Sequence record: OZ346158.1
Source of the DNA: a phage
Direction: 5' to 3' (one strand)
DNA: 64,000 bases
A model generated the notes under the pieces. The model saw only the letters and a list, made by a program, of their open reading frames with translations, did no database searches and was not told the origin of the DNA. Positions within the stretch are counted from its first letter, which is position 1. Each line of letters opens with the position of its first letter. Made by a program: the position numbers and the translations under genes. Of this stretch, positions 2,974 to 58,361 are shown piece by piece.

Positions 2974-3197
2974 CGACTTTGGTTAAAGCTACCTTTGTAG
3001 AAGAAAAGATGACAGACCTGTCATTCTTTAAAGAAGGAAAGACCTACGAGGTTTATTACGATAAAGCTCGTGCAAACAAAATGATTAAAGACGAGGAAGG
3101 GGTTGCCTGGTATATCTCTCACCTGGCAAACGGTGAGTATCATATCTACGGAACCACTTTGCTTGCCAAGTTTGTAGTTGTTGAAGAGGACCTATGA
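2970..3197 (+). CDS. hypothetical protein
   Basis: ORF, ATGA stop-start overlap with upstream gene. Confidence 0.55.
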   Translation: MTTLVKATFVEEKMTDLSFFKEGKTYEVYYDKARANKMIKDEEGVAWYISHLANGEYHIYGTTLLAKFVVVEEDL

Positions 3198-4826: not shown

Positions 4827-5118
4827 AAACATCACCCCCGCAGGGTTCTTAAAAGTATACCGTGAACTGCTATATACTACAGAGGACAGTGTTCTAGAGT
4901 ATCCAGAATATCTTTTGCTGTATAAGTATCTGCAGGAGGCTGGTGAAAATCTGCCAGTTAGTGCAGAAGGTGGTCCGAACTGGATATACAGCGCATGGAG
5001 AAAGGTTGACATTCTCCCCGACCCAGGTAAAGATATGGTAGTTTGGCAGCTTATTAACAACATCGGGATTCCAATCTTTGATGAAGCTGTTAAAATCTAT
5101 TTTGAACTTGACGATTAA
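4816..5118 (+). CDS. hypothetical protein
   Basis: ORF with SD gcaggagaag. Confidence 0.5.
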   Translation: MKTENITPAGFLKVYRELLYTTEDSVLEYPEYLLLYKYLQEAGENLPVSAEGGPNWIYSAWRKVDILPDPGKDMVVWQLINNIGIPIFDEAVKIYFELDD

Positions 5119-10907: not shown

Positions 10908-11236
10908 CAGAGATCATCGTTTCAACTGCAGGGTATGTATTCCTGACAATCATTGCGTTGGCTATTCTGGTGGCGGTGTATGGATTTGTTATCCTGCCTA
11001 TTCTTGAGACATTTAGCTTGTGTCGGTGTTGGAGAAAAGCTTACGGACCACAACCGTGGAAAGACTGGTTTCATTTGGTGCGTATAGCGTTCTCTTATGC
11101 CTATGATCACTCCAGCAGTGCATGCGTAACCGGGTACCATGCCTACAACTGGAACTGGGAAGGGCTTGGGAGATGGACTGTTACAAAAACTATACCCTTA
11201 CGGTTGTATAAAGGAAAGAACACACTGGGAGCCTGA
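10904..11236 (+). CDS. putative membrane protein
   Basis: Hydrophobic N-terminal segment VFLTIIALAILVAVYGFVILPIL. Confidence 0.45.
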   Translation: MTEIIVSTAGYVFLTIIALAILVAVYGFVILPILETFSLCRCWRKAYGPQPWKDWFHLVRIAFSYAYDHSSSACVTGYHAYNWNWEGLGRWTVTKTIPLRLYKGKNTLGA

Positions 11237-11544
11237 TATTTTAAGTTATCAGATTGCCAGAGATCAGGAGGATTTCTAAAATGGATTTCCTCCTTTTGAT
11301 ATTTTACCTACCAGGATATTTTAAAATCCTTAGAAAATCAGAAAATGGATCGAAAACTAAAATGGATTTTTCAGAGCAGGCACGACGAGATGAACCACTC
11401 ATCCTATCGTCTGCACCATATTCCAGACCACCATTACAGATTTCCCGCACATGCTCACATCCTTCTACTAGAACTTCCCCCACTTACCCTTGACCTTTTA
11501 TAGTAATAATCCAACCACTACCTTGAAGTTGTGGCGCAGCTTTC

Positions 11545-11720
11545 CAAGTACTCGATCTGTTTTTCGTTTCAAAGATTTAATTTTCTGAAAATTTTTCTCG
11601 ATAAATTTCTCAGTACTCGATCTGTTTTTCGTTTTCTGAATCGGATTTTCTGGAAATCGTTCCGGCTCTCGACCTGAAATTTTTGGGGACGAAATCGATT
11701 TTTCGTTTTCAGAAATGGAT
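11545..11720. repeat. Direct repeats (25-nt unit cagtactcgatctgtttttcgtttt x2 plus degenerate copies) in non-coding region
   Basis: Identical 25-mers at 11545-11569 and 11611-11635; related atcgatttttcgttttc at about 11693. Confidence 0.8.
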
Positions 11721-11839
11721 TTTTAAAATTTCTATATGGGAATATTTTAGTGGATACTATTTTATAGGAAATTGTTACGGAGGGTAATTAGCGTGCTAAT
11801 TAAATTTATTAAATGCGAGGAGTTCTCATTTAGAATTTT

Positions 11840-12050
11840 GAATGATAATCATTCTCGTTTGCAGAATAACGGGCAGGCCCGGTGATTGTCTCCCGGCCCC
11901 TACTGCCCCGGCTTGTTATTATAGTAACACACAGGACAAAGAAAGCAAGAAGTTTTTGCATAAATTTTTAGACGATAATGATAATCGTTCTCATTTCATG
12001 CAGCGCCCATCCCCGGTGGTTGTCTCCCCCGTCACCGGTGCCTGCCGTCC
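11840..12050. repeat. Two direct copies of a ~60-bp unit (gataatc..ttctc..gcag ... ccggtgRttgtctccc)
   Basis: Units at about 11840-11901 and 11972-12048; the 16-mer ccggtgattgtctccc recurs inverted at 21016-21031. Confidence 0.75.
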
Positions 12051-12238
12051 TTTCAATAGGTATATTTTGCCACCTGGCGGGGCCGCTGTCAACACTTTTC
12101 AAAAAAAAAATTCTAACCTGATGCGCTGACCGCTGCAACCTGGCAGGGCCTAACTGACCAGGTAGGAGAGAATGAAGGCTTGCAAACCTGGTGGGCCTAT
12201 GCTATAGGATAGGTAACAATTGAAGAGGAGGTACAAAA

Positions 12239-12415
12239 ATGGAAGGTAATATGATCCCCCTGGAAAATGTAGCTATTAATGACGCTGAGGCTATCGCCCT
12301 GGTTGAAAAGGCTATGGCGGGAGCGTTGGAACATAAAGAAGAGTACGAAAAAATGGTGGTTAACCTGGCAGGGGCGGCGGCTGGAGAATTCTACCCAAAA
12401 AATAATTTTAACTAA
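12239..12415 (+). CDS. hypothetical small protein (58 aa)
   Basis: Strong SD gaagaggagg 8 nt before ATG. Confidence 0.5.
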   Translation: MEGNMIPLENVAINDAEAIALVEKAMAGALEHKEEYEKMVVNLAGAAAGEFYPKNNFN

Positions 12416-12418
12416 TGG

Positions 12419-12447
12419 TTGACAGCTCGGACAGTTCTTGTTATTCT
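12419..12447 (+). promoter_or_regulatory. sigma70-like promoter TTGACA-N17-TATTCT
   Basis: Read directly. Confidence 0.5.
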
Positions 12448-12500
12448 TATCCTCGCAAGGTGAACAACACCACACCAATTAACAGAGAGGATAAAAAATC

Positions 12501-12698
12501 ATGAACGCCTACGGAATTAAAGTACGTCGCAACACTCGCCAGGTGGTCACCAATCAAGTGATTTGCCGGGTGGATGTAACCATCAACAACGGGCAAGGCC
12601 TTTATAAATTTCGTCGCGGTCATAGCTATACCCTGCAACAGCTTAACCGTTGCGCCCTGACAAAAGGTCAGATCAACCACTGGTTTAATAAAAAATAA
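12501..12698 (+). CDS. hypothetical protein
   Basis: SD agagagga; basic small protein. Confidence 0.55.
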   Translation: MNAYGIKVRRNTRQVVTNQVICRVDVTINNGQGLYKFRRGHSYTLQQLNRCALTKGQINHWFNKK

Positions 12699-12700
12699 TG

Positions 12701-12729
12701 TTGACATAGGGTCTGACACAAAATACACT
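12701..12729 (+). promoter_or_regulatory. sigma70-like promoter TTGACA-N17-TACACT with A-rich upstream tract
   Basis: Read directly. Confidence 0.55.
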
Positions 12730-12761
12730 GAAATCACAAAAGACACTAAGAGGATAAAATC

Positions 12762-13160
12762 ATGAAAACCACTACCTTTAATTTTGATAATGCGGACTTT
12801 TCTTTTTCTGATGTCAAGAACTGCCGCCGTGATCGTGGATTTTACAAGGCTTATAATCTGGTGGGCCTGGACGATGACAATAATTTGCACGAAGTAGCTG
12901 AGATCCGGTATTATGCCGCCGCCAGTGGTAACACTCACTACTGCGTGTTTTGGATTCACGACAACAAGAACAATAAGTACGGTTATACTGGCGGCAAGGC
13001 GAGCGGTCACGGTTACGATAAAGCTAACGCAGCACTTGAGAGCGCATTAAATGCTATGGGGATCACTGCCGACGGCTGGATCTACGAAGAAGAGTTTTTG
13101 TCGGCACTTGCTGACCACCTGGGCTATAAAAAGCACATTGTGACATGCGCCCACGAATAA
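12762..13160 (+). CDS. hypothetical protein
   Basis: SD aagaggata. Confidence 0.55.
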   Translation: MKTTTFNFDNADFSFSDVKNCRRDRGFYKAYNLVGLDDDNNLHEVAEIRYYAAASGNTHYCVFWIHDNKNNKYGYTGGKASGHGYDKANAALESALNAMGITADGWIYEEEFLSALADHLGYKKHIVTCAHE

Positions 13161-13243
13161 AAATCATTGACACGCTGCAAAATTTAAGTAAACTAGACAC
13201 AAAAGGCGGGAATGTTTCCCGCCAGCACAAAGGAAAAAAGATC

Positions 13244-13639
13244 ATGAATAAGAACGTACGCCGCATCATGAACGAACTGGCAAACGATGAAAAAATTATT
13301 GACATGCATTTAGTCAACATTTGCCGCCGTTGTGTAACATATAACAACCGCGCCGCAAAAGCGCGTGAGATGAACGCAAAAGGCACCTTAAAGCCCTTTC
13401 AGGTGGTTGTAAAATCTATAACCAGTGCAGCAGGCCAGGCGCATGACCACAACAACGGGAGCACTAATATTGATCCGTCTTACGTAATGAAACGGATCCG
13501 GACTTGCAAGAATAAAGAGCAGGTGTATAATGTCATAGACTGGTTGGATTCTATGGGCGATGTGGTTTACAATAGGTTTTCTGCAGCTATCGAGATCCAG
13601 CTTGACAGGTTGGACGGTAAAGTACTGAAAACTTACTAA
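13244..13639 (+). CDS. hypothetical protein
   Basis: SD aaaggaaaaaag; preceded by promoter and 5' hairpin ggcgggaatgtttcccgcc. Confidence 0.55.
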   Translation: MNKNVRRIMNELANDEKIIDMHLVNICRRCVTYNNRAAKAREMNAKGTLKPFQVVVKSITSAAGQAHDHNNGSTNIDPSYVMKRIRTCKNKEQVYNVIDWLDSMGDVVYNRFSAAIEIQLDRLDGKVLKTY

Positions 13640-13686
13640 GATTATTTTTAGATGGCCTTGACTTCAGGGCCATCAATAAAGTAAAC
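13640..13686 (+). repeat. 47-bp conserved intergenic element, copy 1 (hairpin gatggcc/ggccatc)
   Basis: Identical to 14271-14317; near-identical to 18010-18058. Confidence 0.85.
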
Positions 13687-13719
13687 TAATCCCAGTTAAG
13701 CGAAAAAGGAGGCTTGAAG

Positions 13720-13839
13720 ATGAGCACTACACGCCAACACACAAAGGTAACGATTATCGTTTGCATCATTGGTTACATCCTGGCGCAAATGTTGATGGGT
13801 AGCGCCAATGATTTCGCAAAATTTTTCTTAGACTTTTAA
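13720..13839 (+). CDS. small hydrophobic protein (39 aa)
   Basis: SD aaaaggagg; TM-like IIVCIIGYILAQMLM. Confidence 0.4.
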   Translation: MSTTRQHTKVTIIVCIIGYILAQMLMGSANDFAKFFLDF

Positions 13840-13867
13840 TTGACAAGCTAACTTAAATCAGTATAAT
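13840..13867 (+). promoter_or_regulatory. sigma70-like promoter TTGACA-N16-TATAAT
   Basis: Perfect hexamers. Confidence 0.6.
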
Positions 13868-13919
13868 ACTAAGCACATAAACGGGAAAACTTCCCAGAAC
13901 ACCAAAAGGAGAAAACATT

Positions 13920-14270
13920 ATGAATACTTCCATCACTATGACCGCCGAAGAAAAAGCCCTGCAGATCGCCGCTCTGAAAAAACAGATTGCAGAACTTGAA
14001 GACAAGATCGACAATTTTGAAATCGACGAAGACAAGTACGACGATAAATATGATGAATGGTTAGACGAGATCTACGGCGAAATTATGATCGGAAACATTT
14101 CTTTTCTTCCGTCGCGTATCCTCAAGGAGCTAGATCCTATCGCTTACCGCTGCGGATTTAGCGACTACATCGACAGCCTGGATATTGAGGACGATGAAGA
14201 ATACCAGGAATTACAGACAGAGTTAGAAGAAGCAAAAGAAGAGCTTGCAGAACTGGAAGAAAACGAGTAA
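13920..14270 (+). CDS. highly acidic coiled-coil protein (candidate DNA mimic)
   Basis: D/E-rich throughout (EDKIDNFEIDEDKYDDKYDEW...DIEDDEEYQELQTELEEAKEELAELEENE). Confidence 0.55.
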   Translation: MNTSITMTAEEKALQIAALKKQIAELEDKIDNFEIDEDKYDDKYDEWLDEIYGEIMIGNISFLPSRILKELDPIAYRCGFSDYIDSLDIEDDEEYQELQTELEEAKEELAELEENE

Positions 14271-14317
14271 GATTATTTTTAGATGGCCTTGACTTCAGGG
14301 CCATCAATAAAGTAAAC
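14271..14317 (+). repeat. 47-bp conserved intergenic element, copy 2
   Basis: Exact repeat of 13640-13686. Confidence 0.85.
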
Positions 14318-14359
14318 TTTATACTGTTAACACTGAACTAATGCATAGGAGTTAAAACC

Positions 14360-14605
14360 ATGGCAGCACTAATCACCAAATATTATGCCCCTACCAACAC
14401 CAAAAGCGCCCGTATCATGGTAAAAGGCTTCGGACGTAAAAAGGTGTACACCTGGGATTATGCCTTAGACACGGAAGACAACTACACCAACGCGATGACC
14501 GATTTTATTAATGATCTGAACACGCGGATCTTGACAAATTATAAAATTACCGATATTGCCTATATAGGGGAAGGCGGGATCTGTTTTGTCGGTATCGTCA
14601 AATAA
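14360..14605 (+). CDS. hypothetical protein
   Basis: SD ataggagtt. Confidence 0.55.
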   Translation: MAALITKYYAPTNTKSARIMVKGFGRKKVYTWDYALDTEDNYTNAMTDFINDLNTRILTNYKITDIAYIGEGGICFVGIVK

Positions 14606-14680
14606 GCTGTTTTTTCGGTGGTCCTGGTAGCAGGGCCATCTATAAAGATAGTTTATCAATACAATGAAAGGAGAAAGTAC

Positions 14681-15034
14681 ATGATCAGCGGGGCAAGTTT
14701 TATTATTGGCGCTATTGCTACGGCTTTAATTGTAAACAAGATCCAATCTAAAAACGAAAAAGATAGCAACGCCCTTACAGAATACCCGTTTTGGGTATTC
14801 AACGACAATGAAGACTATATTATCAAGTACAAGAATGAGAAGGGCGACCAGGTAACACCTCGACCGATCCCGGCTTACAAGATGCAAGAAACACTATACC
14901 GCCTAAAGGCTGGAGGCGCAAAAATCGTAGACTTTTGGGGATACGATCACACAGATCAGGAAGTTATAAAGCGCCGTATCCGGGCTATTCAGGCCAATAT
15001 TGAAGTTAGCAAGGGGGGAATATATGAAGATTAA
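14681..15034 (+). CDS. hypothetical membrane-anchored protein
   Basis: SD gaaaggagaaag; N-terminal TM FIIGAIATALIV. Confidence 0.5.
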   Translation: MISGASFIIGAIATALIVNKIQSKNEKDSNALTEYPFWVFNDNEDYIIKYKNEKGDQVTPRPIPAYKMQETLYRLKAGGAKIVDFWGYDHTDQEVIKRRIRAIQANIEVSKGGIYED

Positions 15035-15221
15035 TTTTGAGAAGATTGTAAAGCGATCTCATGCTTCCGAAGAGCTGCCGGAACGCCGCCAGCGCAACAA
15101 TAAACTGAATAAGCCAAAAAGATTTGGGAAGATCTGGCGGAATCATTATGATCGCAAATTACCGGGCCTGCTTTTGGAACGTGAACGACAGGCGGAACGA
15201 TACCGCCACAAAGGCAAATAA
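15024..15221 (+). CDS. small basic protein
   Basis: SD aaggggggaa; Arg/Lys-rich. Confidence 0.45.
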   Translation: MKINFEKIVKRSHASEELPERRQRNNKLNKPKRFGKIWRNHYDRKLPGLLLERERQAERYRHKGK

Positions 15222-15230
15222 CAACCAACG

Positions 15231-15256
15231 CCCCGCCATTGTGCGGGGCTTTTTAT
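15231..15256 (+). terminator. intrinsic terminator
   Basis: gccccgc-cattg-tgcggggc followed by TTTTTATTT. Confidence 0.7.
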
Positions 15257-15403
15257 TTCTATCCTACAAATAGCGCCCCTGGTTGGCCCTGTAAGCGCCA
15301 AAAAGGCCCCACCTATGCAATCGCCCCCCCTTTAACCTGAAAACATCGCTTAGGGCCGTTTTATGGCGTTAAAAATATCATTGACAGTGATTTTATTTAA
15401 AGC

Positions 15404-15431
15404 TTGACATCTTAAACAGGTTAGCTATACT
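15404..15431 (+). promoter_or_regulatory. sigma70-like promoter TTGACA-N16-TATACT
   Basis: Read directly; a second TTGACA lies 23 nt upstream. Confidence 0.55.
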
Positions 15432-15463
15432 AACCACATCAAAGAGAGAAAGGAGTAAACGCC

Positions 15464-15724
15464 ATGCGTAAATTAAAAAATTTTGATAAAGTTGATGTTG
15501 TCCTGAATAATTTTTACTACTGCAACAACAAGGCCATTTGGTGGCGTGATAGTTCCACCGATAAAGTCAAGGCGCGCTTTCTCCAGGGGCACTGGCAAGG
15601 CCGCCCAGTGATTAAAATCATGGGGCAATTGGTAGCGTTTAAAAATTGCCGCCGTGTTGATGACGTTGAAGAGATCTTGAATATTTTACGCCACAATAAT
15701 TTAAAAAATAGTGTTGACAAGTAA
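15464..15724 (+). CDS. hypothetical protein
   Basis: SD gaaaggagtaaacg. Confidence 0.55.
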   Translation: MRKLKNFDKVDVVLNNFYYCNNKAIWWRDSSTDKVKARFLQGHWQGRPVIKIMGQLVAFKNCRRVDDVEEILNILRHNNLKNSVDK

Positions 15725-15741
15725 ATCTCAATAAGTATACT
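15714..15741 (+). promoter_or_regulatory. sigma70-like promoter TTGACA-N16-TATACT, followed by 5' hairpin ggcgggaagttttcccgcc
   Basis: Read directly. Confidence 0.55.
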
Positions 15742-15798
15742 TAAGCACACAGGCGGGAAGTTTTCCCGCCACTAACAAAGAAAATAGGAGAAAATATC

Positions 15799-16422
15799 AT
15801 GACCACCGTTAACATTACCACAGGTTGCAATTTATCTTTCGACGTGCTGACCGACGAACAAAAAGAAAAAGCTATTGAAATGGTCCGCGAAAGAGAAGAA
15901 CACAGCGGAGAGGATTTTTTCGCAGAAAGTGTAATTGAATATTATAAAGAACAAGTTTTTCCAGAGTACGGCCTTGAAGATACCGATGTACATTGGTCCG
16001 GCTTTTGGTGTCAAGGCGATGGCGCGTCAATTAATGCTGAAAATGTAGACTTAGAGAAATTCTTGCGTAAAGTCAAGGCCCTGACCAAGTTCCGATCAAT
16101 TCGTCACTTGTTCGGCACAATGCACGATGGCGAACTATCAGCCAGTGTTGAACGCGACAAGTACAGCCATTACAGCCATGAAAACACTGTAAGCGGATAT
16201 ATTGATACTACCTGGCTAGATCTGACCGCAAAACAAGAAAATAAAGTAGAAGATCTGGAAGAGCTGATCACCGAGACGGTACGGGAGCTATCCCGCAAGG
16301 TTTATGTAGACCTGGAGGAGGCCTATCTTGAACAGTTTACTACCGAAAACCTGATCGGCCTTATTGAAGCCAATGATTGGCGGTTTGATGTGGATGAATA
16401 TGGAGAAATGAGTTTTTCATAA
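15799..16422 (+). CDS. hypothetical acidic protein
   Basis: SD aataggagaaa; 207 aa, E/D-rich. Confidence 0.55.
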   Translation: MTTVNITTGCNLSFDVLTDEQKEKAIEMVREREEHSGEDFFAESVIEYYKEQVFPEYGLEDTDVHWSGFWCQGDGASINAENVDLEKFLRKVKALTKFRSIRHLFGTMHDGELSASVERDKYSHYSHENTVSGYIDTTWLDLTAKQENKVEDLEELITETVRELSRKVYVDLEEAYLEQFTTENLIGLIEANDWRFDVDEYGEMSFS

Positions 16423-16513
16423 ATAAAGTGTTGCAATAATCTAAAAACCTGCTATATTAAAACTTAAGGGGGAGAGATGACTTGCCCCCACACAAAACAA
16501 AGAGGAAAACATC

Positions 16514-16894
16514 ATGAAAAACACTACTAAAGCTATTGACACCGTTATGTTTAACCTGGTTACATTCCGTGAAGATATGAAAGATCTTCCACGTGAAACA
16601 GTGTGCGACCATATCGAAAACTATCGCAAACTAATCAAAGAGTTGCCTTTAAAACGTGACCAGTACGCGGCTAACGCTATGCTTAACGCCATGATCAAGA
16701 AAATGATTCAGTGCGATTTGACTTTAGCTTATGATTATGCAGGTGGTCGTTTTGCAGTATACAATCAGCCCGTGCCTGGTATGAGCACCACAGAAGAATT
16801 GCACGCGTTAAATCTAAAACAAGACGTATGGGATAACATGCCCCGCGTGGTGGTGTGGGCAGAAAGCGGAAAGATTTACGGCGATAATTTTTAA
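16514..16894 (+). CDS. hypothetical protein
   Basis: SD agaggaaaac. Confidence 0.55.
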   Translation: MKNTTKAIDTVMFNLVTFREDMKDLPRETVCDHIENYRKLIKELPLKRDQYAANAMLNAMIKKMIQCDLTLAYDYAGGRFAVYNQPVPGMSTTEELHALNLKQDVWDNMPRVVVWAESGKIYGDNF

Positions 16895-16958
16895 TCAGGT
16901 AACAGGCGGCATATTTGCCGCCTTATTGTTAAACAGAACTGCAAAAGAGGTACATAGA

Positions 16959-17330
16959 ATGGAATTTATTATTTTGGCTGTAGTAGTTGCCTTGTTCAAC
17001 GCCTGGATCGCTGGCAAGATAGGTAGATCCGCTTTTCTATGGTTTGTTATATCTATTTTCCTGGGAGTGGTTGCAACTATTGTATTGGTTATCCTTGCAA
17101 TTGTTGACAAGGGGAATAATAGAAAGGGTAAAGTATTTTCAGACCTGTACGACGCTCAAACGTTTGTCAACGCCTATTATAGTGATCTTCCAGTCTCCCT
17201 ACGTTGCAGCCTTGCACAACAGGTTTTCGATGAAGCTAAAACCAGAGATCACGCCCATGAGATTTGTTTAACTGAGGCGGATCGCCTATTTGAGAGGAAT
17301 AGAAAATATGTGGACCAGCCGTTTAAATAA
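16959..17330 (+). CDS. membrane protein (2 TM)
   Basis: FIILAVVVALFNAWIA and LWFVISIFLGVVATIVLVILAIV. Confidence 0.5.
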   Translation: MEFIILAVVVALFNAWIAGKIGRSAFLWFVISIFLGVVATIVLVILAIVDKGNNRKGKVFSDLYDAQTFVNAYYSDLPVSLRCSLAQQVFDEAKTRDHAHEICLTEADRLFERNRKYVDQPFK

Positions 17331-17547
17331 TGCCACGTTAATTAACCCCTTTAGTGAAGATTTGAAGCCAGCCGCCTGGCGGGATGGATTCAATAACGAA
17401 AGCTTTATTTTCAGGCCTGATCTTAAGGAATTTTATAACAATGGATCGAACAACGACAGAGATAATTTTTCTTGTAATGTGCGTGGTGATAATACTCCTG
17501 GGGGCCATTGCAAACCACGTCACTGCTAACAGGAGGAAAGGGGAGAC

Positions 17548-17668
17548 GATGACACCCAAGGATAAGCCCCGTACCGATAAGGCGCGCCGTGTTATGGTAT
17601 GGCTTGAGATCATCGCCCTTGAAATATTGTTAGGCGTAGGGATGTATTTTATCGCTGTAAGTAATTGA
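17548..17668 (+). CDS. small membrane protein
   Basis: SD aacaggaggaaagggg; TM VMVWLEIIALEILLGVGMYFIAV. Confidence 0.4.
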
Positions 17669-17808
17669 TAACGGCCCCGATCCCTGGGGCCTAACTTTTC
17701 AAATTTTTTTCTCCCTGAGTGTTGCAATCCGATCCAGAATATGGATAATAACAATCAACGGGGAGACACTCCCCACCGCATAGACAAAGTTCCAAAAGGA
17801 GAAACAAA

Positions 17809-18009
17809 ATGAGCAACAATATCCGCGTTATTAACTTCAAAAAAGAAGAAAAAATTGCCGTGCTGATTGACGGTCAAGAAATCTTTAAAGGTGATTATGA
17901 AGATCATCAAACGGCGATTAGTATCACTCGCGTGATTGGTTACCATAATTTTTACCCTCAAGGCGCTGAGGCAGCAGTAAAACGAATTAAAGAGATTGTA
18001 GGCCTGTAA
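17809..18009 (+). CDS. hypothetical protein
   Basis: SD caaaaggagaaac. Confidence 0.55.
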   Translation: MSNNIRVINFKKEEKIAVLIDGQEIFKGDYEDHQTAISITRVIGYHNFYPQGAEAAVKRIKEIVGL

Positions 18010-18058
18010 AATTTATTTTTAGATGGCCTTGACTCCAGGGCCATCAATAAAGTAAATT
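18010..18058 (+). repeat. conserved intergenic element, copy 3 (2 mismatches)
   Basis: tttttagatggccttgactccagggccatcaataaagtaaa. Confidence 0.8.
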
Positions 18059-18100
18059 TAAACCCTGTTAAAATAATCAGTGCAAAAAGGAGTAATGATC

Positions 18101-18400
18101 ATGTTTATCCAGGCTAATAATCTTTATTTCTTTGATGGTCAGATCGTAGACGGCGTGGAGGTGGAAATCACCGGGTGCCCTGGCGGTCAGGTTATGACTT
18201 TTCGGAATAATGCCTTTGATGATTCTCATATCGTTATGAGAATGGAAGTTAGTAAGCTGGATGACAAGAAAACACTCATTGATTATTCCGTGAAAGATCA
18301 TCCAGACTACCACATGATCTATGGTGATTTGTGCATTGTTGACCGTGACAAGGTGGGCGGCATTGTGATCGCTATTGTGAACGATGTTTTCTCAAACTAA
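18101..18400 (+). CDS. hypothetical protein
   Basis: SD aaaaaggagtaatg. Confidence 0.5.
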   Translation: MFIQANNLYFFDGQIVDGVEVEITGCPGGQVMTFRNNAFDDSHIVMRMEVSKLDDKKTLIDYSVKDHPDYHMIYGDLCIVDRDKVGGIVIAIVNDVFSN

Positions 18401-18417
18401 TTTCAGCAGGTGATTTT

Positions 18418-18768
18418 ATGAAAGTAAAACTATATTACCTTAATGAGCTTAACCCCCTTGCCCAGGTCCGCGCCATGGCTAATACCTTGATTTGTGAGAA
18501 ATCTGTATATTGTGTTGAGCTTAACTCCATGCGTGAACGTCTCAAAGGTGGTTACTTTGACATCCATGCTGCAATCAACGGCCTGAATATGGAATTTATC
18601 CGCTTACGTAACAGCCGCCAGAATCTGGGAAGAATGGAACAAGATCCGGCCCACCTTCGTAAGCTGGTTATTGAAAATCATCTAATGTTTAATGCCGATG
18701 GTGATTATTACCATTTTCACCGTAAACGCTGGTACCGTAGCGGCAATATAGGAAAGAATGCAAAATAA
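18418..18768 (+). CDS. hypothetical protein
   Basis: ORF. Confidence 0.5.
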   Translation: MKVKLYYLNELNPLAQVRAMANTLICEKSVYCVELNSMRERLKGGYFDIHAAINGLNMEFIRLRNSRQNLGRMEQDPAHLRKLVIENHLMFNADGDYYHFHRKRWYRSGNIGKNAK

Positions 18769-18976
18769 GGCCCCTGGCAGGGCCTGCAGCGATATAATCA
18801 CATAAAGGCTATGCGGTTGCATAGCCTTTATTATTTTGGCGTTACAGCGGCCCCCAAGGCGCTTAAAAAAATTTTTAAAGAAGTACTTGCATCAAGTCCT
18901 ACAATATGGATAATAAAGGGTGTCGGGGGGGCGGTGAGGCCTCCAATCATTAACCGGATAGATAGGAGTTAAAACC

Positions 18977-19261
18977 ATGGCTATTGTTACCGTTGGCGAT
19001 GTAGTAGAAATGGAAGCCAAATACTTAAAAGCTGGTATGCATATCATACGGAATGATCAAGAATTGTTATTAACCATGGTTGAATATAATCCCGGTCAGG
19101 ATTATCCAAGCATTGACTACTTTTTCCAGTATGTTGATGAAGAATTAAAAGAGGATGAGGCTTATCAGGGTGAATTTTGTAATTTCTTTTGCCCTGATGA
19201 GGTTGTAAAAGTTATCTATCAACCTGGCGTACCTTTCCCGCTGCACGCTATCAACAAATAA
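18977..19261 (+). CDS. hypothetical protein
   Basis: SD gataggagtt. Confidence 0.55.
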   Translation: MAIVTVGDVVEMEAKYLKAGMHIIRNDQELLLTMVEYNPGQDYPSIDYFFQYVDEELKEDEAYQGEFCNFFCPDEVVKVIYQPGVPFPLHAINK

Positions 19262-19316
19262 ACCTGGCGGGGCCGAAAAGGCCCCCAATTATGAAAATAA
19301 AGAGAGGCAAATCATC

Positions 19317-19550
19317 ATGATGGAACAAATTAAACGCGCCGAGGCTATTAATGGCAACGTGATCTATTTTGTCAGCAAAAACGAAAAAGGCGTACCCTAT
19401 GCGGCGGTAATAGTACAGCCTGACGGCGATTATTGGTGTACTGTGTACGGCGCTTATTCTTTTGGGCGTCCAGTGCATGATAAAATTTTGAAAGTAGCGA
19501 ACCCTACCGGGAAAAATATCACAGCAGAAAAATTTTTTGAAAATAGTTGA
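19317..19550 (+). CDS. hypothetical protein
   Basis: SD aagagaggcaaa. Confidence 0.5.
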   Translation: MMEQIKRAEAINGNVIYFVSKNEKGVPYAAVIVQPDGDYWCTVYGAYSFGRPVHDKILKVANPTGKNITAEKFFENS

Positions 19551-19621
19551 CATGACCATATAAGACTGTAGTATATAAATCAAAGGGGCAAGCCCCACCA
19601 ACCACAAAGAGGATAAAAATC

Positions 19622-19801
19622 ATGGCTATTATTGCAAAGACTGAGATCGTAGGCTTGGATTCTATTCTCCTCGCATATGAGGAAGCTATAGAAATGTATG
19701 TGGTTTCCTATGGTGAGTATATCCGTGAATATAAATCTATTGATCTGGCTTTTGAATGTTATATTCGCCAGGTTAATAAAGCGTACGATGATTATCGTTA
19801 A
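19622..19801 (+). CDS. hypothetical small protein
   Basis: SD aaagaggataaaaat; downstream of promoter at about 19547. Confidence 0.45.
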   Translation: MAIIAKTEIVGLDSILLAYEEAIEMYVVSYGEYIREYKSIDLAFECYIRQVNKAYDDYR

Positions 19802-19891
19802 AATAGTTTGAAAACAAACAACCATCTTACAAAGCATAATACATAAGGCGGTGGAATGGTCCGCCACCTGGAACAAGAAGAGGAAAACAAA

Positions 19892-19996
19892 ATGAAACAG
19901 AAATTAATTGATGCGGTGATCCTGGTTATTGCCCTGGGTATTGGCCTGATTGCAACCATGGCTAATGTGATCTTGTCTTCCAACGGTATCGGGTGA
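19892..19996 (+). CDS. small single-TM protein (34 aa)
   Basis: SD aagaggaaaac; AVILVIALGIGLIATMA. Confidence 0.35.
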   Translation: MKQKLIDAVILVIALGIGLIATMANVILSSNGIG

Positions 19997-20311
19997 GGTT
20001 GGCAAATGATCACTAACAAAACAGGCAAGCGGAATTTTTACTCAACTTACAGATCGGCAAGCCTGAGATCTGGTATTGCACTAAAACACCACGTGACGAA
20101 ATGAAAGACTTCACCGCCACGCTGCAACGGGTAAAGATATCCATCACGCAGAAAAAGGCCTTGATAGTGGTGGAAGGTGAGATCCCTCAAACCGTTGTTA
20201 TAGTTGAGCGTACAGCATAGTTTAATTTATACCGATACCCGAAAATTAACCAACAAAGCATAAACAGGCGGTTACCGCCGCCTTAAACGTAGCAGAAAGA
20301 GGATAGACACA

Positions 20312-58204: not shown

Positions 58205-58278
58205 ACCAGTAAAAACTTAAATATCTGTACTATAAGGATTCGTATGTTTTATGTTCGCTCTGGAACAGAGGTTAGTAA

Positions 58279-58361
58279 CTGTCCGTGATACGGACACTAC
58301 TGTCCGTCACGCGGACACATCTGCCCGTAATACGGACACTAACTGTCCGTGATACGGACAC
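58279..58361. repeat. Four tandem about 21-bp palindromic iterons (consensus cTGTCCGTgatACGGACAc)
   Basis: Copies at 58279, 58300, 58321, 58343; each has 7-bp inverted arms with a 3-nt spacer; followed by AT-rich tract 58362-58490. Confidence 0.85.

Follow-up and report, generated by a model that had tools for sequence, protein, structure and literature searches.

A repeated intergenic element in the early gene region

What does a short sequence do when it recurs, nearly unchanged, directly after the stop codons of unrelated genes? We addressed this question for a repeated intergenic element in a 64,000-nucleotide (nt) stretch of phage DNA (sequence record OZ346158.1, hereafter the window), where an earlier note had described a 47-nt sequence in three copies, two of them identical. 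The element is set in a + strand series of small hypothetical genes 3′ of the DNA polymerase gene. This region (positions 13000-19000) is 99.6% identical to Escherichia phage MaxBurger (Bas54, MZ501093.1) and at least 90% identical to approximately 120 other Vequintavirus (rV5-like) genomes.

The identical 47-mer reported at 13640-13686 and 14271-14317 was confirmed, and the identity between these two copies, c1 and c2, proved to be longer, spanning 51 nt (13637-13687 and 14268-14318); as judged from dinucleotide shuffles of the window, the number of 47-mer matches expected by chance is zero. The third copy, c3 (18010-18058), had been described as carrying two mismatches. In fact it differs from c1 by one inserted T, because of which it escaped a 3-mismatch search, and by substitutions at three places: the 5′ edge (G>A), the loop (T>C) and the 3′ edge (C>T). 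A 44-nt core, TTATTTTTAGATGGCCTTGACTYCAGGGCCATCAATAAAGTAAA, in which one position is degenerate, is common to c1, c2 and c3. A fourth copy had been overlooked: a repeat search located c4 at 14603-14653, with 69% identity, and it is matched at 69 bits (E ~1e-11) by a covariance model trained on ten copies. Run on the whole window with filters off, this model returned exactly four copies, all on the + strand and scoring 69-83 bits, with the reverse complements at half the score. It found no copy past c1-c4 in the window and none past the same four in the complete MaxBurger genome.

As had been noticed for the first three copies, each directly follows a stop codon (the preceding open reading frames (ORFs) end at 13639, 14270 and 18009), and the same is true of c4 (14605). 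The genes flanking the different copies bear no relation to each other, which upholds the view that this is an independent element and not a by-product of duplicated flanking genes. When c4 was used as a blastn query, it was found once in each of 118 Vequintavirus records and had no matches outside Vequintavirus.

The copies fold as sense-strand RNA hairpins

The earlier note had proposed a 7-bp stem with a 10-nt loop. The best fold predicted by RNAfold is a different one. Its upper stem pairs GAUGGCCUUG with CAGGGCCAUC over 10 bp, one of them U.G, and ends in a 4-nt loop; next comes an internal loop of 2 nt on one side and 3 nt on the other, and then a 7-12-bp A-U lower stem in which the upstream U-tract, extending into the stop codon, is paired with the downstream AAAGUAAA. 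The mistaken geometry had kept hidden the feature that matters most, a two-turn interrupted helix. Free energies range from -20.7 to -27.0 kcal/mol (z ~ -6; 0/200 shuffles fold as well), and the - strand reaches -13.6 kcal/mol at best.

In c1 (13639-13687, + strand, after the ORF at 13244-13639; -20.7 kcal/mol, z -6.2; 80.5 bits) the lower stem is formed by 13642-13648 and 13678-13684, the internal loop by UA (13649-13650) and AAU (13675-13677), and the upper stem by 13651-13660 and 13665-13674, with the loop ACUU at 13661-13664. Copy c2 (14270-14318, + strand, after the ORF at 13920-14270; 83.1 bits) has its upper stem at 14282-14291/14296-14305. In c3 (18009-18059, + strand, after the ORF at 17809-18009; -23.6 kcal/mol; 81.4 bits) the lower stem lies at 18009-18019/18049-18059 and the upper stem at 18022-18031/18036-18045, with the loop ACUC. 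The diverged c4 (14603-14655, + strand) combines a lower stem at 14603-14614/14644-14655 with an upper stem at 14617-14626/14631-14640, the tetraloop GUAG and internal loops UC and UAU; it folds at -27.0 kcal/mol with 22 bp and a G+C content of 40%. In a scan with 56-nt windows, c4 ranked fourth by energy and, at 23 bp, had the most base pairs among the 30 top-ranked folds listed, which also included c3.

The evidence for selection on this fold comes from copies in 12 further Vequintavirus genomes or contigs, whose covariance-model matches collapse to 30 distinct aligned sequences. Pairing is kept in 100% of the cells of the upper helix, where four pairs vary by one-sided changes only, each to G.U or C-G. 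The lower helix shows two-sided changes at five pairs (G-C/A-U/G.U, U-A/C-G, U-A/G.U/A-U/G-C and A-U/U-A). The covariation score is 0.194, compared to 0.120 +/- 0.009 in column shuffles (0/500 reach the observed value), and slid controls, in which the partners were moved by 1-3 columns, gave at most 0.062. We regard the covariation as supportive rather than overwhelming evidence for the structure. The motif AUAAAG is unchanged in all 30 sequences, and c4, which lacks the promoter hexamers described below, retains the fold and is conserved across the genus. Across eight genomes, 11% of the columns are variable in c2 and 15% in c4, versus 41-56% at third codon positions of the adjoining genes; in the leaders directly 3′ of the elements 29-62% of the columns vary.

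The strand on which this selection acts can be read from the same alignment. The core pairs contain 78 G.U cells versus 6 A.C cells, and each of the 30 sequences folds better as the + strand (mean -24.3 versus -14.7 kcal/mol). Since a DNA palindrome or cruciform would lack such a strand bias, the selected object is the sense-strand RNA; the G.U asymmetry likewise rules out an N4-type hairpin promoter and a DNA cruciform. Taken together, these results make it very probable that the element is a real, selected family of sense-strand RNA hairpins.

Two variants alter the hairpin itself. In phage Gotham (L002), c1 (4877-4929) carries a 5-nt deletion (GGGCC) that disrupts the 3′ arm of the hairpin and reduces the hexamer spacing to 13; either this copy has been knocked out naturally or the hairpin was misread in sequencing. 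The metagenome contig Ga0129313_1000039 (L012/L023) has a divergent c1-like copy (L012 2768-2827) in which the loop is 5 nt long (AUAAC) and the 3′ internal loop has gained an A. As to known RNA families, positions 11000-20000 gave no match to Rfam 15 apart from two sub-threshold chance matches, and a relationship to type III antitoxin-like RNA repeats (cf. phiTE) was ruled out, the copies being dispersed instead of tandem and without similarity.

The hairpin resembles RNase III processing sites

A G/C-rich stem-loop directly 3′ of a coding region on the sense strand recalls the intrinsic terminators and the repetitive extragenic palindromic (REP) stabilisers of E. coli. Unlike these, however, the element has no U-tract on either strand, with a U-rich run 5′ and an A-rich run 3′; its helix is much longer and is interrupted, and it bears no similarity to REP sequences. 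The earlier note was thus right that the lack of a U-tract 3′ of the stem sets it apart from a canonical intrinsic terminator: the 3′ flank reads AAUAAAGUAAAC, and the element is absent from the terminator scan of both strands. A terminator on the minus strand was ruled out as well, the flanks being U-rich 5′ and A-rich 3′ on both strands.

The fold is more like that of the early RNase III sites of phage T7. We refolded five of these (R0.3, R0.5, R1, R1.1 and R1.3) at positions following Dunn and Studier (1983) rather than the RefSeq annotation. At these coordinates, R1 folds with 8 bp in the lower stem and 9 bp in the upper, a 2x3 loop between them and a tetraloop on top, and R0.5 with 8 bp, a 4x5 loop and a 10-bp upper stem. 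The same kind of two-turn, quasi-continuous helix is found here, with its 10-bp upper stem, 2x3 internal loop and 7-12-bp lower stem, against the 9-10-bp upper stem, small loop, asymmetric internal loop and lower stem of about 8 bp that mark the T7 type. Like the T7 sites, the copies are intercistronic, follow stop codons directly in early operons of the host polymerase, and resemble one another. They differ from the T7 sites in showing no sequence homology to them, in that cleavage here is predicted, and in numbering only four, within 4.4 kb of a 136-kb genome.

The local transcription signals place the copies inside operons. An upstream sigma-70-like promoter at 13167-13194 (+ strand, TTGACA-N16-TAAACT), which is P194 in Table S4 of the rV5 paper, would transcribe c1, c2 and c4 in one early mRNA. 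The first canonical intrinsic terminator 3′ of these copies lies at 15230-15249 (+ strand; GCCCCGC...GCGGGGC followed by TTTTTATTT) and is annotated as a terminator in phage EdH4; there is none between the upstream promoters and position 15230.

According to Pertzev & Nicholson (2006, PMC1540722), a target of E. coli RNase III has 11 bp of helix from scissile bond to loop. Beside the loop-closing pair lies the distal box, U-A followed by U-G, and the proximal box comprises 4 bp, with A-U or U-A required at position 2 and G-C and C-G excluded at position 4; G-C at position 1 and A-U at position 3 are optimal. Read in this register, c1-c3 have a closing G-C pair, U-A, U.G and four G/C pairs, and then a proximal box made up of U-A (position 1), A-U (2), G-C (3) and an A.A apposition (4). 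The helix from loop to cut comprises 11 positions, namely ten Watson-Crick or wobble pairs and the A.A apposition. The conserved U.G wobble is explained by this alignment because it forms part of a canonical UA/UG distal box, and the A-U at proximal position 2 and the non-Watson-Crick apposition at position 4 are both favourable for RNase III. In c4 a C-G pair replaces the U.G, giving a UA/CG distal box as in T7 R0.5.

From the register with T7 R1.1 and the minimal substrate uR1.1, scissile bonds are predicted on the + strand at 13677|13678 in c1, 14308|14309 in c2, 14643|14644 in c4 and 18048|18049 in c3. Under the 2-nt stagger rule (2 nt 3′ of proximal-box position 4), RNase III would cut just past the U in the 3′ internal loop, and the invariant AUAAAG spans this bond. 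On this model the hairpin would be transcribed inside a polycistronic early mRNA, and RNase III would part the cistrons by cutting once, at the internal loop on its 3′ side (in c1, following U13677). This would leave the stable upper hairpin at the end of the upstream message, as a shield against 3′ exonucleases. By analogy with T7, we put the likelihood that the hairpin serves in such T7-type RNase III processing and 3′-end stabilisation of early mRNAs a little below even.

Protection from exonucleases could also be achieved without cleavage. As a passive RNA stabiliser, the uncut hairpin would block 3′-to-5′ exonucleases after distal cleavage or Rho-dependent termination, in the manner of REP sequences and of other stem-loops between cistrons, and so give the upstream cistrons differential stability. 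A sense-strand RNA structure conserved by covariation, placed directly 3′ of stop codons, with a stable 10-bp G/C-rich upper stem and no U-tract, suits this role. For such a purpose, however, a short G/C hairpin would suffice, and hairpins of this kind exist nearby (e.g. at 13205-13223); the lower stem, the asymmetric internal loop, the invariant AUAAAG and the match to the UA/UG distal box would all go unexplained. Passive stabilisation therefore seems unlikely to us.

A promoter-like sequence overlies three of the copies

Besides the hairpin in the RNA, c1-c3 carry a second set of putative signals in the DNA. In c1, sigma-70-like hexamers occupy 13658-13687 on the + strand (TTGACT at 13658-13663, an 18-nt spacer and TAAACT at 13682-13687), and a consensus scan placed their equivalents, also on the + strand, at 14289-14318 in c2 and 18029-18058 in c3, the latter with TAAATT. 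The common pattern, TTGACW-N18-TAAAYT, matches the consensus at 9/12 positions, and at up to 10/12, and is preceded by TTATTTTT at the position of an UP element (the T-tract at 13642-13649 in c1). The EdH4 copy has a perfect TTGACA, Gotham bears PhagePromoter annotations at the equivalents of c2 and c3, and P194, a promoter predicted independently, shares the -10 region AAGTAAACT. Within the hairpin loop, the bases AC, which complete TTGAC, are constant in the aligned c1-c3 sequences, with the exception of the divergent metagenomic c1-like copy (TTGATA), and the remaining two loop bases occur in three and two states. This constancy is suggestive of a -35 constraint in the aligned copies. Across the gene run, the consensus scan found 47 promoter-like sites versus 26 expected.

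The DNA of c1-c3 would, on this reading, act as a moderate sigma-70 promoter, its -35 (TTGACW) falling at the tip of the hairpin, its -10 (TAAAYT) in the lower stem's 3′ arm and the T-tract where an UP element would be, and it may restart transcription for the next gene, making the element a composite similar to the PeSLs (promoter early stem-loops) considered below. Judged from the hexamers and their surroundings, we hold it to be possible, with chances somewhat under even, that a sigma-70 promoter overlies these three copies. There is a precedent for a promoter overlapping a processing hairpin: in T7, the predicted R1 hairpin (T7 3103-3143; L035 2604-2644) contains the annotated minor E. coli promoter C, which starts at 3113.

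PeSLs of T4-like phages consist of an A/T-rich tract, sigma-70 hexamers and an overlapping stem-loop, and ORFans that lie between two PeSLs in one phage can correspond to a single chimeric PeSL in a sister phage (PMC2839356; PMC4122927). We compared the element with the systems of RB49/phi1, PST/T4 and nt-1/KVP40 (Arbiol et al. 2010, PMC2839356; Comeau et al. 2014, PMC4122927). Like PeSLs, it takes up the space between a stop codon and the Shine-Dalgarno sequence and ATG that follow, in an early region rich in ORFans (in all four copies the next ATG is 25-45 nt past the end of the element); in c1-c3 it would combine an A/T-rich tract and candidate sigma-70-like -35 and -10 hexamers with a stable overlapping stem-loop without a U-tract; it is present in several near-identical copies per genome; and an ORFan cassette between two copies gives way to one chimeric copy in relatives. 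According to the rV5 annotation, some rV5 early genes have homologues in RB49.

The geometry, however, is unlike that of the RB49 PeSLs, which on refolding gave a 7-8-bp G/C hairpin exactly in the spacer between near-consensus -35 and -10 hexamers, without a U-tract. In the present element a 10-bp stem has the -35 at its apex, and the UP-like tract and the -10 region pair to form a second stem of 7-12 bp. Compared with PeSLs, the hexamers are weaker, c4 has none, there are only four copies, and the phage is a Vequintavirus, from another subfamily and not T4-like; promoter and terminator activities are here putative.

These likenesses nevertheless raise the alternative that the element is a true PeSL, that is, mainly a sigma-70 early promoter, at which host RNA polymerase would start, with an attenuator stem-loop that dampens or terminates read-through from upstream, and with no role for RNase III. 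Besides the hexamers and T-tract of c1-c3, the PhagePromoter calls in Gotham, the perfect TTGACA in EdH4 and the constant loop AC, it draws on the terminator activity reported for PeSL stem-loops that also lack a U-tract (PMC2839356; RB49 folds) and on a PeSL-like cassette deletion that left a chimeric element at the junction. Yet c4, with CTGGTA in place of a credible -35, is as conserved as c2 and keeps its pairing by compensatory changes; a promoter would have no use for the lower stem or for the invariant AUAAAG of the spacer; and E. coli RNA polymerase would not be expected to terminate intrinsically at a stem-loop that lacks a U-tract. The 9/12 match comes with a suboptimal 18-nt spacer, and the element does not appear in the stringent list of 33 promoters and 20 terminators given by the rV5 authors. 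We consider this alternative doubtful. A T4-type late promoter, to which the sequence ATAAAG might point, was set aside, as rV5 is without gp55 and gp33 homologues (PMC3606486).

A second repeated intergenic cassette in the window, at 13167-13223 and 15714-15770, has the classical PeSL-like order: a promoter (TTGACA-N16-TAAACT/TATACT) followed after about 10 nt by an 8-bp G/C hairpin, GGCGGGAA-NNN-TTCCCGCC.

Recombination between copies removes a gene cassette

Copies c1 and c2 bound a 631-bp cassette (13688-14318, + strand) that consists of an ORF at 13720-13839, a consensus promoter at 13840-13867 (+ strand, TTGACA-N16-TATAAT), an ORF at 13920-14270 and c2 itself. In phages magaca and phiWec189, the gene upstream of c1 directly adjoins the gene downstream of c2. 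When the window was aligned by blast with magaca (L032), phiWec189 (L034) and an IMG/VR contig (L011), the alignments broke exactly at the element: the two alignments overlap by the length of the element, 631 bp (13688-14318) are missing, and a single chimeric copy remains that joins the upstream flank of c1 to the downstream flank of c2. Phage ime also lacks the cassette and shares its junction with magaca. Altogether, the element is present in 121 records and the interior of the cassette in 115. Over 251 bp, the magaca junction shows 100% identity with the flanks in EdH4-like phages that carry the cassette, and the ime junction shows 99.6% identity with the flanks of cassette carriers. The sequenced junctions in magaca, phiWec189 and L011 have the loop variants ACAC, ACTT and ACTC, respectively, and the presence of different variants at three junctions argues for independent deletion events.

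The loops of c1 and c2 are often equal within a genome and different between genomes (TT/TT in the window, AC/AC in EdH4 and TC/TC in Gotham), which indicates gene conversion. The identity of c1 and c2 within a genome is thus partly a product of concerted evolution. With approximately 50 bp of identity, the two copies act as substrates for homologous recombination, which homogenises them and has deleted the 631-bp cassette repeatedly. We take the role of the element as a recombination substrate to be demonstrated. A different downstream gene follows the copy in Ga0129313_1000039, which suggests that cassettes are replaced at the element as well as deleted. A separate indel in the region, the 116-aa gene at 18418-18768, is absent from Gotham, rV5 and the IMG/VR contig L011 and is not bounded by the element.

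This bears on the inference from exact conservation to function made in the earlier note. Function is supported by the comparison between genomes, but the argument as worded is weak, since c1 and c2 are homogenised within a genome by recombination. Of the four functions proposed (processing site, protein-binding site, promoter and recombination site), all but protein binding gain support.

The deletions also raise the alternative of a site that acts as DNA, either an operator for a dimeric phage or host protein overlapping the -35 or a cruciform or recombination hotspot cut by an EndoVII-like resolvase, with the RNA fold being incidental. The imperfect palindrome does overlap the promoter-like -35, the deletions have their junctions inside the element, the phage has a gene for a packaging and recombination endonuclease, and crossovers in RB49 PeSLs were mapped to the stem-loop (PMC2839356). 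However, a G.T apposition on the sense strand is an A.C mismatch on the other, and the excess of G.U over A.C cells (78 versus 6) and the difference of 10 kcal/mol between the strands are expected of RNA, and ordinary homologous recombination between 50-bp identical repeats is sufficient to explain the deletions. We consider a DNA-level site very unlikely.

A proposed composite of processing site, promoter and recombination substrate

The best explanation of these observations, in our estimation only just short of an even chance, is a composite one, in which the copies form a small family of four regulatory cassettes, set between the cistrons of the ORFan-rich early gene cluster in an rV5-like Vequintavirus. 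So understood, the element is a familiar kind of phage regulatory cassette and not a new mechanism.

Several observations weigh against this composite explanation. With respect to the fold, the independent covariation events are few and mostly separate c4 from c1-c3 or variants within c4, and gene conversion among copies could inflate the apparent conservation. With respect to RNase III, the U-A at proximal position 1 and the G-C at position 3 are suboptimal, and c4 has G.U at proximal position 2, which may inhibit RNase III binding. The confinement of all four copies to 4.4 kb of the 136-kb genome is odd for a general processing signal, and this clustering fits spread by cassette shuffling. 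In the literature we found no transcriptome, RNase III or promoter-assay data for Vequintaviruses. With respect to the promoter, matches of 9/12 with an 18-nt spacer are common by chance, the CTGGTA of c4 at the -35 position speaks against a promoter as the primary function, and the two insertions in the divergent metagenomic copy retain the hairpin and shift the hexamer spacing.

The composite explanation has a more ambitious version, in which the element would be a cut-and-restart module: one 55-nt mobile sequence containing both a site for RNase III (or for a phage RNA-binding protein) and a promoter, such that processing and re-initiation evolve and move as one recombination-competent unit that is specific to Vequintavirus and distinct from T4-type PeSLs. 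We regard this version as quite unlikely.

Distribution of the element and other repeats in the window

Searches of seven flanking proteins against Pfam gave nothing informative. By tblastn, the upstream flanking gene is confined to Vequintavirus; homologues of the 81-aa downstream protein are scattered among unrelated phages, without the element. Pattern scans of IMG/VR and metagenomes for distant relatives gave a few Vequintavirus contigs plus chance matches, and a locus search seeded with proteins returned two loci. Since the blastn matches to c4 came from this genus alone, no covariation from deeper divergence could be obtained. Among the records more than 90% identical to E. coli Vequintaviruses across this region are seventeen 'Campylobacter phage' entries in GenBank (MG0656xx, host Campylobacter jejuni); probably these host labels are wrong or the records are contaminated.

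Two further repeat arrays lie elsewhere in the window. At 58276-58361, between the minus-strand genes bas54_0205 and bas54_0206 of MaxBurger, four tandem repeats of 21-22 nt, each with the palindrome GTCCGT-N4-ACGGAC, form the strongest local fold in the window and look like an operator or iteron array. At 11538-11723, three direct repeats of about 47 nt, with spacings of 65 and 74 nt and little convincing coding capacity, may correspond to the 'non-coding' box of the rV5 genome map.

Implications for Vequintaviruses

The analysis supplies four exact positions at which transcript processing can be tested, and it documents PeSL-like shuffling outside the T4-like phages. It also identifies predictable deletion points in these genomes, which is relevant to genome stability and engineering in a group that is much used in phage therapy and is present in the BASEL collection. 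If the composite explanation is true, PeSL-style cassettes that drive modular gene shuffling would not be peculiar to T4-like phages but would operate in Vequintaviruses too, and these phages would form a second lineage, besides T7/T3, in which host-transcribed early operons are punctuated by RNase III-type hairpins.

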